The position numbers were made by a program, and so were the translations under genes. DNA of 36,634 nt from Alphaproteobacteria bacterium (GTDB taxonomy: Bacteria; Pseudomonadota; Alphaproteobacteria; Rs-D84), in the NCBI GenBank assembly GCA_017534945.1, contig JAFXVB010000028.1, forward strand, positions 1-36,634, given 5' to 3'. Shown here piece by piece: positions 1 to 20,571 of this stretch (positions are counted from its first letter, which is position 1; every line of letters starts with the position of its first letter). The notes beneath the pieces are model-generated. The model worked only from the letters and a program-made list of their open reading frames with translations. It searched no databases and was not told the DNA's origin.

Positions 1-2
1 AC

Positions 3-1286
3 GATTGGTGGGGACTGTGTAAAAAATTTAATAAAATTAATATTGGCGATACGCTTACCATGGATGATGGCACAAAAATTCATGTCATTGATAAAGACGA
101 AGAAAGTGGATTATTACTGCATTTTAATTGCGACAATATTTTTGATGTGCTGAATAATGTCGGCAAAATGCCATTGCCACCGTATATGAAGCGCGAAGAA
201 GAGTTGTCTGATCGTGAACGTTATCAAACGGTTTATGCAGATCCCTTGGGGTCTATGGCGGCGCCAACGGCTGGGTTGCATTTCACAGACGAATTGATGA
301 GTGAAATTGAAAAACGTGGTGCAAAAATTGTAAAGATTACATTGCATGTTGGTGCGGGAACTTGGATGCCTGTTAAAACAGAAAATTTAGATGAACATAA
401 AATGCACAGCGAATGGTGCTGTATCACACCCGAACAAGCCGATATAATAAACGATGCTGCGCGCGTAATTGCCGTCGGTACAACATCAATGCGTACATTG
501 GAATCCGCCCACCAGTTGGCATTAAAAAAAATGGCGTGTAAAAATAATTGTTATGCAGATATTCAAAGTTCCCCTCTGGCTAGAGGGGTGCCCGCAGGGC
601 GGGGTGTCGTTTATACACAACTTCAAAAGAACCCAAAATTGAAAGAGCGCGCAAAAGAACTCCGTAAAGCCGGTAGTTTGCCCGAGGCATTGCTGTGGAA
701 AGAAATAAAAAATAAAAAAATAAACGGATTAAATTTTAATCGCCAAACAGTGATAGGAAATTATATCGTTGATTTCTTTTGTCCAAAAACAGGTTTGGTT
801 ATCGAGATTGATGATAAAACACACGATTTCAAGGGTGATTATGACGAGAAACGCGAAGCGTATTTATTATCGTTGGGCTTAACCACGCTGCATATTCCTG
901 CAAGTGATGTTTTACAAGATGCGTTTAGTGTTGCAGAAATGATTAGACGACACCCCGTCGTTTCACGCCACCCCTCTAGCCAGAGGGGAACTCTGTTCGG
1001 TTTTCACAATATCAAAAAGTATGTAAATAACACAAAAATACCTCGCGTTGTTCCAATTTGCCAATCTACAAATATATTTATAACCCCAGGTTATAAATTT
1101 GGTGCGGTGGATGTGTTGCTGACTAATTTTCATTTGCCAAAATCAACACTCTTTATGTTGGTGTCCGCGTTCGCGGGGCTTACCGAGATGAAATCTGCAT
1201 ATGCCCACGCGGTTGCCGAAAAATACAGATTTTTCAGTTATGGCGATTGTTGCCTATTGTTCAAAAAGGACGCACAAAATGATTGA
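3..1286 (+). CDS. queA: S-adenosylmethionine:tRNA ribosyltransferase-isomerase QueA (5' end outside window), carrying an in-frame endonuclease insertion
   Basis: Motifs MPLPPYM, RYQTVYA, AAPTAGLHFT, TLHVGAGT, AVGTTSMRTLES, TNFHLPKSTL, YRFFSYGD. Frame is open back to position 3. Lies upstream of tgt. Confidence 0.96.
   Translation, partial: DWWGLCKKFNKINIGDTLTMDDGTKIHVIDKDEESGLLLHFNCDNIFDVLNNVGKMPLPPYMKREEELSDRERYQTVYADPLGSMAAPTAGLHFTDELMSEIEKRGAKIVKITLHVGAGTWMPVKTENLDEHKMHSEWCCITPEQADIINDAARVIAVGTTSMRTLESAHQLALKKMACKNNCYADIQSSPLARGVPAGRGVVYTQLQKNPKLKERAKELRKAGSLPEALLWKEIKNKKINGLNFNRQTVIGNYIVDFFCPKTGLVIEIDDKTHDFKGDYDEKREAYLLSLGLTTLHIPASDVLQDAFSVAEMIRRHPVVSRHPSSQRGTLFGFHNIKKYVNNTKIPRVVPICQSTNIFITPGYKFGAVDVLLTNFHLPKSTLFMLVSAFAGLTEMKSAYAHAVAEKYRFFSYGDCCLLFKKDAQND
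567..992 (+). mobile_element. Putative REP-like inverted-repeat cassette encoding a DUF559 (Vsr-like) endonuclease domain, inserted in frame in queA
   Basis: 567-590 (agttcccctctggctagaggggtg) is the exact reverse complement of 969-992. 600-610 pairs with 947-957. Interior 612-947 encodes ERAKELRK..PEALLW..FNRQ..IGNYIVDF..LVIEID..H..D..R, the DUF559 pattern. Confidence 0.8.
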
Positions 1287-1677
1287 AAAAGAAGAGTTGT
1301 TGCCCATTACACGAGAACTTCAAAAGCGACTTGGTTTGCCGTTTGCAATCGCTGAAAAATGTTTTAGCATACGTTTTTCCGAAGCAGACATTAAATACAT
1401 TGAAACAAATATAAAAAAACATAAATTATACAGAGCGTTATACAAACAGGGGTATAATAAGGGTAAACACAGTAAATATGACAAGCTTTACAGATGGCAA
1501 ATTGAATTAAATTTTTGCAATATGTTTTTGAAAGACCAAACGATACCGATACGGGTTAAAGATTTTCTAAATGCTTATATAGGGTTAGGTTTAGACACAT
1601 TGGAAAACTACAATTATCTGCAGTATTATGTTGGACAAAGATTTTTAATAGAAAAATGGATGGAAACATGTCGTTAA
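1279..1677 (+). CDS. Hypothetical protein (132 aa) between queA and tgt
   Basis: ATG at 1279 preceded by AAAGGA; overlaps the queA stop and the tgt start; no family recognised. Confidence 0.7.
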   Translation: MIEKEELLPITRELQKRLGLPFAIAEKCFSIRFSEADIKYIETNIKKHKLYRALYKQGYNKGKHSKYDKLYRWQIELNFCNMFLKDQTIPIRVKDFLNAYIGLGLDTLENYNYLQYYVGQRFLIEKWMETCR

Positions 1678-2777
1678 AATTTGATTTAATTGCAACCGAT
1701 GGAACTGCACGTCGCGGACGTGTCCATACGGCACATGGGGTTTTCGAAACCCCGGCATTTATGGCGGTGGGTACGGCCGCAACGGTCAAGGCATTAACAA
1801 TGGACCAGGTTGCCGCGACCGGTACCCAGGTAATATTGGGCAATACATATCATTTAATGATGCGCCCCGGTGGTGATTTGGTTGAAAAAATGGGCGGTTT
1901 GCATAAATTCAGTGGTTGGCATGGGCCAATTTTAACTGATTCCGGTGGGTTCCAGGTTATGTCGCTGTCGAATCTGGTTAAGATGAAGGAAGAAGGGGTT
2001 GAGTTTACATCCCATATTGACGGTGGTATCAAACATTTTATGCACCCCGAAGATTCTGTCCATATTCAACATCAATTGGATTCTAATATAACAATGGTGT
2101 TGGATGAATGTTTGCACTTGCCAACAACGCGCGCACGTGCGGAAAAAAATGTAGATATGGTGACCCGTTGGGCACAGCGTAGTAAAGACGCCTTTATCGA
2201 CCGCGATGGATATGGAATTTTTGGTATTGTCCAAGGTGCCGATTTTCCGGACTTGCGTGAAAAGTCAGCGCGGGCATTAACCGAAATCGGTTTTGACGGT
2301 TATGCGATTGGGGGACTCGCGGTTGGTGAACCCCAAGATGTAATGTTTAATATGATTGCAACCGTTGCACCAATGTTGCCAACGGATAAACCGCGTTATT
2401 TAATGGGTGTTGGAACACCATTGGATATATTGGGTGCGGTTGAACGCGGTGTTGATATGTTTGATTGCGTTATGCCAACACGTGCCGGCAGAACGGCTCA
2501 GGCGTTTACAAGACATGGCACAATGAATATGCGTAATGCAAAATTCCGCGATGACCCCGCGCCATTGGATGACAGATGTGGTTGTCCGGCATGTAAATTA
2601 TCGCGTGCATATTTACATCACTTGATTAAATGCAACGAAGTGTTGGGCGCAACTCTACTTACCCAACACAACCTGTGGTTCTATCAAGATTTAATGCGCG
2701 ATATTAGGGAAAGCATAGAGCAGGGGCGTTTTCAAGAATTCAAAGATGAATTTATTAAAAATTATAAAGGTGAATAA
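1668..2777 (+). CDS. tgt: tRNA-guanine transglycosylase (preQ1-inserting type)
   Basis: TPAFMAVGT, GNTYHL, TDSGGFQV, VLDEC, GIVQG, GGLAVGE, PRYLMGVG, DMFDCVMPTR, Zn site CGCPAC...H. Confidence 0.97.
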   Translation: MSLKFDLIATDGTARRGRVHTAHGVFETPAFMAVGTAATVKALTMDQVAATGTQVILGNTYHLMMRPGGDLVEKMGGLHKFSGWHGPILTDSGGFQVMSLSNLVKMKEEGVEFTSHIDGGIKHFMHPEDSVHIQHQLDSNITMVLDECLHLPTTRARAEKNVDMVTRWAQRSKDAFIDRDGYGIFGIVQGADFPDLREKSARALTEIGFDGYAIGGLAVGEPQDVMFNMIATVAPMLPTDKPRYLMGVGTPLDILGAVERGVDMFDCVMPTRAGRTAQAFTRHGTMNMRNAKFRDDPAPLDDRCGCPACKLSRAYLHHLIKCNEVLGATLLTQHNLWFYQDLMRDIRESIEQGRFQEFKDEFIKNYKGE

Positions 2778-3204: not shown

Positions 3205-4194
3205 ATGGCCAAAAAAGTTAAAGAAGTCGAAGTTATCGATATGCATGGCGCAAAAACTGTTGCAAAAAAACCGTCTGTGATAAAGGGTGCAAAACGCGTT
3301 TTTGCAATTGTGACTGTTATTTGGTTGTCTTTTGTTGCGGTATTTCCGTTGTATGTAAAAAATCATTATGCGGGTCCAATTAAAAAATCTATGGTTGTAT
3401 CCATGTTTTTTGATTTGCAAAGAAATATCCAAGAACAATATGCAAAATTATTATCCGGAATCAAGGATGCAATCAATATCGAAAAGCCGGTAATGATGGC
3501 TGTGGACAAGGTTAAAATTGCACAAAAACAAGTGGGCAAAGTGACCGACACAACGGCCAAGGCCAAAGAAACAACGACCAAGGCGGCCGAAACAACATCT
3601 GGGGTTAAAAAATTGACGGGCTTGGCAAATATGTTTGGTGTAAAAACAGATTCTGTTGATAAAGCATTGGATAAGGCAAACGCCGGCATAGACCAAGCAA
3701 ACAAAGGTATTGCAAAGGTTGATGATACCGCGAAAATGGTCAATGAAAAATTGGATAAAGTTCAAACAGATTTGATAAAATTAACCCAAATTGAAATTGA
3801 TAAAGTTATCGATGCCGCAATCAAAAAAGAACTGGATAAAAATTCCGGCGGCTTGGGGACTACTTTATTGACTAATTATGGAATCAAACATGTGTATCCA
3901 TGGCGCCCGTCCAGTTGGCCTGTGGCGGTTAAAATCTATAACGATTTGGAAAAATCAAATTTGGGTGTGGTGCAAATTTTAACACGCACAGTTAACAAAT
4001 ATTTCGGCTATGTTGCATGGGGTTTGGTAATTGCGGCATGGGCGGCGGGATTGTTTATCTGGTCTATGATATACAAGAAATATAAAATGGTAATAGCGCC
4101 GTTCTTGGTATGTCCGCGTTGTGGTCATACATATGCAGACAAACGTACCGCAATGAGTTTACTGAAAGCATTGCAACCATGGAAATGGTTCTAG
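3205..4194 (+). CDS. Hypothetical membrane protein: two TM segments flanking a long coiled coil, C-terminal CPRC
   Basis: AGGAG RBS; hydrophobic segments VFAIVTVIWLSFVAVFPLY and VAWGLVIAAWAAGLFIW; K/D/A-rich helical middle. Confidence 0.8.
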   Translation: MAKKVKEVEVIDMHGAKTVAKKPSVIKGAKRVFAIVTVIWLSFVAVFPLYVKNHYAGPIKKSMVVSMFFDLQRNIQEQYAKLLSGIKDAINIEKPVMMAVDKVKIAQKQVGKVTDTTAKAKETTTKAAETTSGVKKLTGLANMFGVKTDSVDKALDKANAGIDQANKGIAKVDDTAKMVNEKLDKVQTDLIKLTQIEIDKVIDAAIKKELDKNSGGLGTTLLTNYGIKHVYPWRPSSWPVAVKIYNDLEKSNLGVVQILTRTVNKYFGYVAWGLVIAAWAAGLFIWSMIYKKYKMVIAPFLVCPRCGHTYADKRTAMSLLKALQPWKWF

Positions 4195-4208
4195 GAATTA
4201 AAAAACAT

Positions 4209-4246
4209 AAATAAAAATACCGCCCAAATGGGTGGTATTTTTATTT
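4209..4246. terminator. Bidirectional intrinsic terminator
   Basis: aaataaaaataccgccc-aaat-gggtggtatttttattt between convergent genes. Confidence 0.85.
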
Positions 4247-20468: not shown

Positions 20469-20493
20469 TAAGTCTGGGTGGCCAGAATAATAA

Positions 20494-20528
20494 TTCCCCT
20501 CCTGTGGAGGGGTGCCCATAGGGCGGGG
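20494..20528 (+). repeat. Solitary REP-like double-hairpin repeat, same family as the queA cassette arms
   Basis: ttcccctcc-tgt-ggaggggtgccc-ata-gggcgggg versus ttcccctct-ggct-agaggggtgccc-gca-gggcgggg at 569-604. Confidence 0.85.
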
Positions 20529-20571
20529 AGGGTGAATTACCCGAGAGAGAATAAATCAATAAGGAAACCTG

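Follow-up and report, generated by a model that had tools for sequence, protein, structure and literature searches.

A DUF559 nuclease cassette with two-hairpin ends in the reading frame of alphaproteobacterial queA: a candidate homing-type element

The 36,634-nucleotide contig JAFXVB010000028.1 (NCBI GenBank assembly GCA_017534945.1; hereafter the window, meaning this whole stretch) comes from an alphaproteobacterium of the order Rs-D84 and carries, inside the housekeeping gene queA, a cassette at 567..992 (+ strand) in which a DUF559 nuclease lies between inverted terminal repeats of two hairpins each. Across related genomes, this nuclease-plus-hairpin element has been gained, lost, transferred between species and switched between sites. 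We consider it probable, at about 65%, that the cassette is a non-splicing, in-frame, homing-type nuclease element that is tolerated as an inserted domain. A preliminary description, made from the letters of the window alone, had proposed a mobile nuclease-plus-repeat unit lying in frame in a housekeeping gene, and the empty alleles, the further loci with DUF559 and these repeats, the in-frame insertions in unrelated genes and the sound contigs reported here support that proposal. Its suggestion that the element was undescribed also held, in that our literature search found no description of hairpin-ended DUF559 cassettes or of insertions in QueA; Supplementary Table S4 of PMC9881135 may list inverted-repeat-flanked DUF559 loci, and two apparent matches to DUF559 in the literature proved to be DUF5591 and DUF5590.

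The cassette and its reading frame

The 3′ part of queA forms a single open frame of 427 codons (3..1286, + strand) that is open at the 5′ end of the window, and the 5′ part of the gene forms the end of another contig, C2, of the same assembly. Within this frame, the Pfam match to PF02547 (Queuosine_synth, E 7.2e-88) is split in two around DUF559, with frame residues 2-176 corresponding to model positions 86-254 and a C-terminal piece beyond the insertion. The cassette measures 426 nt, that is, 142 in-frame codons from the left to the right repeat, with position 567 as a first and 992 as a third codon base in the frame that starts at 3, exactly as the preliminary description had read it, and it has neither a start nor a stop codon of its own. 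The motifs LESA and IFITPGY stand 186 residues apart in the window's queA, compared with about 22-25 in the empty alleles of relatives; the earlier estimate of about 185 for this gene was therefore sound, whereas the typical spacing of about 15 set against it was slightly low. The termini of the window's cassette recur in two congeners, G007 and G012, and in others.

The left terminal repeat (566..609, +; translated as SSPLARGVPAGRGV) consists of AAGTT, hairpin 1 (571-588, 7-bp stem), TG, hairpin 2 (590-600) and a GGGG-TG tail, and the right terminal repeat (948..992, +; translated as RHPVVSRHPSSQRGT) is the reverse complement of the left unit, with its hairpin 1 at 971-988; both read-through peptides are as first noted. 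A repeat search returned outer arms of 27 nt (564-590/969-995, 96%) enclosing a perfect 24-nt pair (567-590/969-992), and inner arms (600-626/931-957, 74%) enclosing a perfect 11-nt pair (600-610/947-957), thus recovering both of the perfect pairs already reported. On its own, either outer arm forms a hairpin whose stem is 7 bp long. The element may extend to the right over 993..1012 (+), read as LFGFHN; in the window's cassette subfamily, the sequence after the right repeat is nearly the same at both queA sites described below and in another host gene (L041, L042, L044-L048; P0009, P0010, P0018).

Between the repeats lies the core of the DUF559 nuclease, of the Vsr-like PD-(D/E)XK type (636..947, +; frame residues 212-315), which was recognised by Pfam (PF04480, 93.1 bits where 20.6 is the cut-off, E 1.2e-26; E 1.2e-25 for the match at residues 212-315), by its closest solved relative (PDB 3hrl, E 3.8e-16) and by its fold. 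A model of the cassette, with a predicted local distance difference test score (pLDDT) of 81.2 that falls below 50 in the repeat-encoded ends, matched in Foldseek both 3hrl (template modelling (TM) score 0.80, root-mean-square deviation 2.4) and the catalytic domain of I-Bth0305I (3r3p, TM 0.71-0.74), bearing out the Vsr-like fold named at the outset. D69, E80, D82 and H86, among other residues, are invariant in an alignment of 50 sequences and represent putative catalytic residues. The nuclease core is strongly conserved in 51 copies, and the ratio of nonsynonymous to synonymous substitution rates (dN/dS) has a median of 0.14 and a maximum of 0.41 (272 pairs, 0.05<dS<2); judged by this ratio, the nuclease is under purifying selection. 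The host gene also remains constrained, since queA around the cassette shows a dN of 0.03 against a dS of 0.68 in occupied alleles.

For the survival of the cassette in a housekeeping gene, the preliminary description had offered two routes, namely a tolerated fused domain or precise removal. Removal after transcription or translation, whether by an unrecognised intron, excision of an RNA stem-loop or an atypical intein, would yield a mature QueA without the cassette, and it draws on the length of the cassette, an exact multiple of three, and on a predicted RNA fold in which both ends are brought together in one long stem (-150.5 kcal/mol, z -6.5, 0/100 shuffles). The long stem postulated earlier is therefore present in the prediction; however, it is an automatic consequence of the inverted repeats and provides no evidence of removal. 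Pfam detected no family except DUF559 above its cut-off in the cassette and hence no intein/Hint domain, the residue after the cassette is Leu and not Cys, Ser or Thr, and Rfam gave 0 matches at E<=1 in window positions 1-2000, hence none to a group I or II ribozyme structure. Furthermore, the nuclease lacks its own start codon and would thus be made only by read-through, and between them, the different copies keep all three frames of the repeats free of stops, as would be expected of translated sequence. We regard removal as extremely improbable. The tolerated domain is favoured instead, because the frame is open in all copies, queA is under strong purifying selection and these searches found no intein or intron signature.

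Occupied and empty alleles, transfer and loss

The records of close relatives are labelled Candidatus Enterousia or Alphaproteobacteria metagenome-assembled genomes and come from animal guts. Enterousia (order Rs-D84) are described as gut bacteria with genomes under ~1 Mb, in an account whose accessible part mentions neither queuosine nor palindromes nor endonucleases. Among the 24 congeners sampled first, queA was present in 24/24 and uninterrupted in 20, so that the empty alleles anticipated for close relatives do exist; G007 and G012 carried a cassette at the window's site, and G018 and G021 carried one at the position of a second cassette on C2. Hereafter, the queA position of the C2 cassette is site 1 and that of the window's cassette is site 2. 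Over the whole genus, a DUF559 relative at E<=1e-10 was found in 93/257 genomes and a queA cassette in at least 38/257, a lower bound that leaves out one more candidate at a contig start; both sites are filled in 7. Matches at E<=1e-25 occur in 81/298 other genomes of the window's family and in 0/29 genomes of the order's five other families. A protein collection held 237 longer proteins matching the cassette, and 98 of the best 120, which we examined, are QueA. These 98 clusters comprise 48 occupied at site 1 only, 40 at site 2 only, 8 at both sites and 2 N-terminally cut fragments, and none of them shows an insertion elsewhere in QueA. In one allele group the cassette replaces a loop; in the window's group the loop is longer.

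The end of C2 carries the first ~236 codons of queA and, after the RMLVV motif, a second in-frame DUF559 cassette with the same ends (C2:3644-4079); C2:3556-3648 and 4066-4188 match PF02547 model positions 1-31 and 32-72. C2 adjoins the window, because the gap between its end and the window start amounts to ~8 codons in the QueA alignment and one contig from an independent study (X2) holds both, joining window 1-588 to cassette-like sequence ~216-440 nt upstream. Reconstructed in this way, QueA would be ~670 residues long here, compared with ~345. A small third in-frame insertion, GC-rich, ~20 codons long and without DUF559, lies near QueA reference position 70-72 (C2:~4170-4235), and the break between C2 and the window follows directly after it; this insertion is also found in L036 (G018), P0046, P0055, P0072 and P0073. 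In addition, a second DUF559 type, ~33% identical to the window's and with different flanking repeats, occurs in frame in QueH and at both queA sites (L078 and L079 in G113 and G117; L036, L063, L080, L081). Because this divergent type occupies both sites, two unrelated cassette lineages use the same queA loops.

We rejected misassembly or another artefact as the source of the insertion: junction-covering contigs come from three studies, none shows a misassembly at the repeat ends, and more than 98 independent protein clusters are at hand. In X1, possibly the source sample, a 1245-nt contig corresponds to window 1-1244 with zero differences, and in X2 and X3, from other studies, both junctions are covered by contigs whose breaks fall only within palindromes. 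A joint from 566 to 993, indicative of a deletion or an empty allele, was seen in none of the contigs of 4 runs, which says little given that contigs drop rare variants; loose ends at 503 in X5 correspond to empty alleles that belong to other species of the sample.

Comparison of three species pairs at site-2 cassettes (147 codons) revealed that the cassettes resemble each other far more closely than do the genes around them. Between G065 and G158, dS is 0.032 in the cassette against 0.68 (211 codons) and 1.25 (73 codons) in flanking queA; the corresponding values are 0.032 against 0.65 and 1.12 for G158 and G131, and 0.021 against 0.23 and 0.30 for G192 and G131. A cassette dS about 10-40 times below that of flanking queA indicates recent horizontal spread. 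The near-identical tract shared by G065 and G158 starts ~25 nt left of the left repeat and stops ~12 nt right of the right repeat. Moreover, a QueA from another species (P0006) has a cassette 100% identical in protein to the window's, although the remainder of the protein is different and site 1 carries no cassette.

A maximum-likelihood tree of 51 cassette cores, from which duplicate loci and copies below 100 bits were left out, requires cassettes to have switched between the two sites 9 times, with well-supported branches forcing at least 8 of these switches, and it places the window's cassette as sister of the site-1 cassette of G161. Loss has left footprints: P0010 retains a lone hairpin at site 2, and G015 retains part of a left repeat in a site 1 that is otherwise empty. 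A sporadic mix of occupied and empty alleles at one site in related genomes, together with transfer independent of the host gene, is a homing-type feature; the housing departs from that pattern, as the element lies in frame within coding sequence and not in a self-splicing intron, an intein or an intergenic region. At a further locus (L024 in G023, 759-1500), a duplicated queA 5′ fragment of 33 codons runs into a left repeat unit and terminates at a stop. It is joined to sequence that resembles, by eye, the upstream gene's 3′ end, and beyond this come a small gene and an intact queA without a cassette. We regard this arrangement as a rearrangement at a repeat unit.

These alleles bear on two further explanations. 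DUF559 might be a useful module recruited for repair, defence or nucleic-acid handling and repeatedly fused to nucleic-acid enzymes, the repeats being linkers or recombination scars. The low dN/dS and the invariance of the putative catalytic residues agree with such a role, as does the range of hosts, nearly all of which are nucleic-acid enzymes (QueA, QueH, TsaD, KsgA, PriA, XseA and restriction-modification proteins). Nevertheless, the cassette is patchy among congeners, queA is intact and conserved where it is missing, its dS is far below that of the host gene, and its losses have left footprints; free-standing flanked copies exist, and the DNA of the repeats is conserved although copies read it in different frames, as described below. 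We accordingly judge a recruited module to be very unlikely. Still less credible is an invertible on/off switch, in which recombination between the repeats would flip the cassette and truncate the host, producing phase variation of queA and of restriction-modification genes. The inverted cassette does have 6 in-frame stops, and Table 1 of PMC9881135, the part of that source on which we draw, shows 'DUF559 domain-containing protein' as enriched (odds ratio 14.3) among predicted programmed-inversion targets. Against this, the sense orientation was found in 41/41 queA cassettes of the tree set and no strand-changing joint in the contigs, the latter a weak argument given that rare variants drop out of contigs.

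Downstream of queA lies tgt, encoding queuine tRNA-ribosyltransferase (1656..2777, +; PF01702, E 4.6e-154), and this context indicates that the queuosine pathway is retained. An open reading frame of 132 codons without a Pfam match occupies 1279-1677 between the two genes. Some contigs skip it, with joints from 1270 to 1664 in X1 (depth 3) and from 1277 to 1641 in X5, and it thus represents a variable insertion between two queuosine genes.

Hairpin ends and their occurrence beyond queA

From the outside inwards, the repeat unit consists of AAGTT, hairpin 1 (stem CCCCTCY / RGAGGGG, variable loop), TG, hairpin 2 and GGGG-TGGT, with the right end as its reverse complement. Hairpin 1 keeps the same sequence; in hairpin 2, both sequence and length differ from copy to copy, but the pairing is preserved. 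Among 19 units of 43 nt, 98.6% of the cells pair, two pairs in hairpin 2 show two-sided changes, and the covariation score was reached by 0/500 shuffles. Perfect stems of at least 4 bp were present in 22/33 distinct hairpin-2 segments, compared with a mean of 0.36 and a maximum of 3 after shuffling. The loops of hairpin 2 are mostly GAA, GCA or AAC, and GNA loops closed by C-G form unusually stable DNA mini-hairpins. As single-stranded DNA, the left repeat is predicted to fold at -12.9 kcal/mol (z -3.3) and the right one with a z of -3.8. Different copies read the repeat DNA in three frames (SSPLARG..., VPLLRRG..., FPSLEG...), which points to a constraint on the nucleic acid and not on the peptide.

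The genome of the window (909 kb in 46 contigs, 38.8% G+C, 89.6% complete) contains three DUF559 matches, the third being a free-standing gene on contig C26 with related hairpins on its flanks. A solo terminal repeat unit, comprising hairpin 1 and hairpin 2, is located in the window at 20492..20538 (+), intergenic and directly after a stop codon (DNA fold z -3.2), and further solo units occur on C17 and C23. Dense clusters at C17:1600-2300 and C23:7600-7720 mix other palindromic units with cassette-type repeat units and include a large hairpin-1 variant with a further hairpin inside its loop; a solo perfect palindrome lies at C23:7695-7717.

We examined the best 80 loci from a one-genome-per-species scan that found 566 relatives. 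A hairpin was located within 110 nt of the DUF559 core on both sides in 48/80 loci, on the left only in 20/80, on the right only in 4/80 and on neither side in 8/80. The pairing of DUF559 with these repeats, proposed from a single locus, thus recurs on C2 and C26 and, on at least one side, in 72/80 loci from other genomes. The hairpin motif reaches 6.8 per kb within 110 nt of the cores, compared with 0.17 per kb more than 300 nt away. The 80 loci span 12 phylum-level labels, including Bacteroidota, Pseudomonadota, Bacillota, Armatimonadota, Thermodesulfobacteriota, Chloroflexota, Cyanobacteriota and candidate phyla; the labels were taken from the records themselves, and binning errors may be among them. 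The full two-hairpin architecture was the same in all 14 loci read.

Frames of at least 250 residues contain 59/80 loci, and in the 29 of these 59 that were scanned for host families, the commonest hosts were HsdR, whose cassette comes after the N-terminal nuclease and before the motor, Type ISP enzymes, Eco57I/MmeI-type and N6/N4 methylases, and HsdS; PriA, a radical SAM protein and a TIM-barrel protein also occurred, and four frames held no family besides DUF559. Closer relatives of the window's cassette sit in frame in QueH, KsgA, TsaD, XseA and a tRNA m5U methyltransferase, and the Pfam match of the host is split in four of these. In-frame insertions in unrelated genes, which the preliminary description had expected, are therefore numerous. 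Free-standing copies begin with an ATG immediately internal to the left repeat, and their stop codon lies where the right repeat ends on its outer side; the in-frame forms have lost both codons.

Some of these loci have peculiarities of their own. In L112 and L124, whose records are titled Bacteroidales and Chitinophagales, HsdR carries both a GIY-YIG domain and a DUF559 cassette between its N-terminal nuclease and its motor, and this junction may be a permissive site common to two homing-type nucleases. Seven congeners (L082-L088) share, at one conserved locus, a free-standing DUF559 gene closely akin to the queA cassettes; it lies upstream of a small gene taken by eye for tsaE, has repeat units on its 5′ side only and stops right after the core. 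L071 and L072 (G125, G168) have an in-frame cassette in a protein of ~300 residues that belongs to no Pfam family and is conserved in both congeners.

The ends could instead belong to a hairpin-ended transposon, whose DUF559 protein would recognise them, perhaps as single-stranded DNA at replication forks in the manner of IS200/IS605 or of repetitive extragenic palindromes (REPs) and their REP-associated tyrosine transposases (RAYTs); the element would be excised or copied and inserted elsewhere, and the in-frame survivors would be insertions passed by selection. Such an element would have terminal inverted repeats, and those observed are conserved under 12 phylum-level labels, in sequence for hairpin 1 and in structure for hairpin 2, whose loops are of few kinds. 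The many unrelated target genes, the site switches, the solo and tandem units that accumulate beside cassettes and also between genes, and the variable junctions, which would fit a transposon-like step, agree with it as well. Nevertheless, we hold a transposon to be unlikely. Pfam found no DDE, HUH, serine or tyrosine transposase domain in the cassette and no target-site duplication was seen at the junctions inspected, both as stated in the preliminary description; a PD-(D/E)XK nuclease alone is not known to join strands. In addition, copy numbers are low, at 1-5 per genome, and same-site replacement across species, with an identity tract reaching slightly past the repeats, fits recombinational repair.

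Under the homing-type reading, we infer that the fusion protein is made, that its nuclease is active and cuts a target, and that repair copies the element. An element in a variable queA loop would be transcribed and translated as an internal domain of QueA, with the Gly/Pro/Ser/Arg-rich peptides encoded by the repeats serving as linkers. Because the host gene would be inactivated by any frameshift or stop arising in the element, selection on the host would keep the frame of the nuclease open. Spread between genomes at the same site would occur by nuclease-initiated recombinational repair, that is, by homing-type gene conversion after DNA uptake, the element would occasionally move into the second permissive loop of queA or into a different gene, and loss would proceed by deletion that leaves repeat footprints behind. 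The repeats may act both as linkers and as recognition or recombination modules.

Several observations weigh against this reading. Classical homing endonuclease genes are not known to have terminal inverted repeats, and the conservation of the repeats under 12 phylum-level labels suggests that the ends are needed for movement, as in a transposon. Classical homing is site-specific, whereas the junctions vary by up to several codons between alleles. Given this variation, the at least 8 site switches and the entry into unrelated genes, some moves cannot have been simple homing. No target-site duplication was evident at the inspected junctions, although a duplication of 1-2 nt is possible. The copy number is low, with three DUF559 copies in this genome, and strong purifying selection is equally expected of a useful domain. 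The full-length fusion model (P0006, 36 aligned sequences; mean pLDDT 56.5, predicted TM score 0.47) was too poor to place the domain on QueA and was not used. We also considered a 'landing pad', with solo perfect palindromes that join the two outer half-ends as the target of the nuclease, and found it unsupported as the main route owing to the rarity of such palindromes, of which there are 16 sites in 13/257 genomes (0 for the reversed control); this rarity likewise counts against homing.

Known systems and significance

None of the closest known systems combines an in-frame translated nuclease with conserved two-hairpin ends. Inteins resemble the cassette as in-frame selfish insertions in conserved genes, often with a homing nuclease; by contrast, the cassette has no splicing domain or junction residues, and the insert is expected to stay in the protein. 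RAYTs are relatives of HUH tyrosine transposases, extragenic and accompanied by abundant repeats, whereas the cassette encodes a PD-(D/E)XK nuclease, occurs in few copies and in many cases lies in frame inside genes. The likeness to REP/RAYT (REPIN) systems consists, as far as the accessible text goes, in a single small gene between inverted GC-rich hairpin repeats that also occur solo in the genome (PMC3116915). Vsr-like (EDxHD) homing endonucleases such as I-Bth0305I and 'fractured gene' endonucleases share the nuclease fold, the sporadic alleles and the horizontal spread, but, in the portions of the sources consulted, they are located inside a group I intron or between the halves of a split intein and do not remain in the host product (PMC3239194, PMC2677866); the cassette has no intron or intein, its nuclease stays in the host polypeptide and its terminal repeats are structured. 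The ShiLan insertion in a phage DNA methylase is likewise in frame and non-splicing, but its HNH nuclease is encoded in another frame and has start and stop codons of its own, and its abstract does not mention terminal hairpin repeats (PMC11855218); the cassette encodes DUF559 in the host's own frame and on bacterial chromosomes. Rickettsia palindromic elements (RPEs) are palindromic repeat DNA that is read through in frame in housekeeping genes of reduced-genome alphaproteobacteria and is apparently tolerated, a likeness by description and not by sequence comparison with RPE families; they are ~150 bp long, with no enzyme of their own mentioned in the part of the source at hand (PMC10969869), whereas the cassette has a conserved nuclease between its palindromic ends and reaches far beyond one genus.

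A wider proposal, which we put forward tentatively and on which we would not yet rely, is that DUF559 proteins are the engines of a pan-bacterial class of ~430-bp mobile elements, each consisting of a Vsr-like nuclease and two conserved two-hairpin ends recognised by it, that live free between genes or, having shed start and stop, as translated domains of host proteins. If so, homing nucleases would have, in addition to introns and inteins, a third means of residing in a gene that stays functional, and many DUF559 'fusions' (HsdR, Type ISP, methylases, QueA, QueH, TsaD, KsgA, PriA) would be parasitic insertions, with the solo repeat units as their non-autonomous derivatives. Protein-coding palindromes of the RPE kind would thereby have their first enzyme partner.

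Should the homing-type element be confirmed, DUF559, a large family of unknown function, would gain a function and a lifestyle, and nuclease-driven selfish DNA would have a non-splicing, in-frame route in which the host's need for an open frame protects that of the parasite. The cassette would then rank among the smallest candidate self-mobilising elements of bacteria, no smaller one being known to us, and would offer a candidate enzyme partner for palindromes of the RPE kind, for which the consulted part of PMC10969869 names none. The annotation of odd domain architectures in restriction-modification and tRNA-modification enzymes would change accordingly, and the permissive loops, the natural linkers and a possibly hairpin-specific nuclease could be of practical use.

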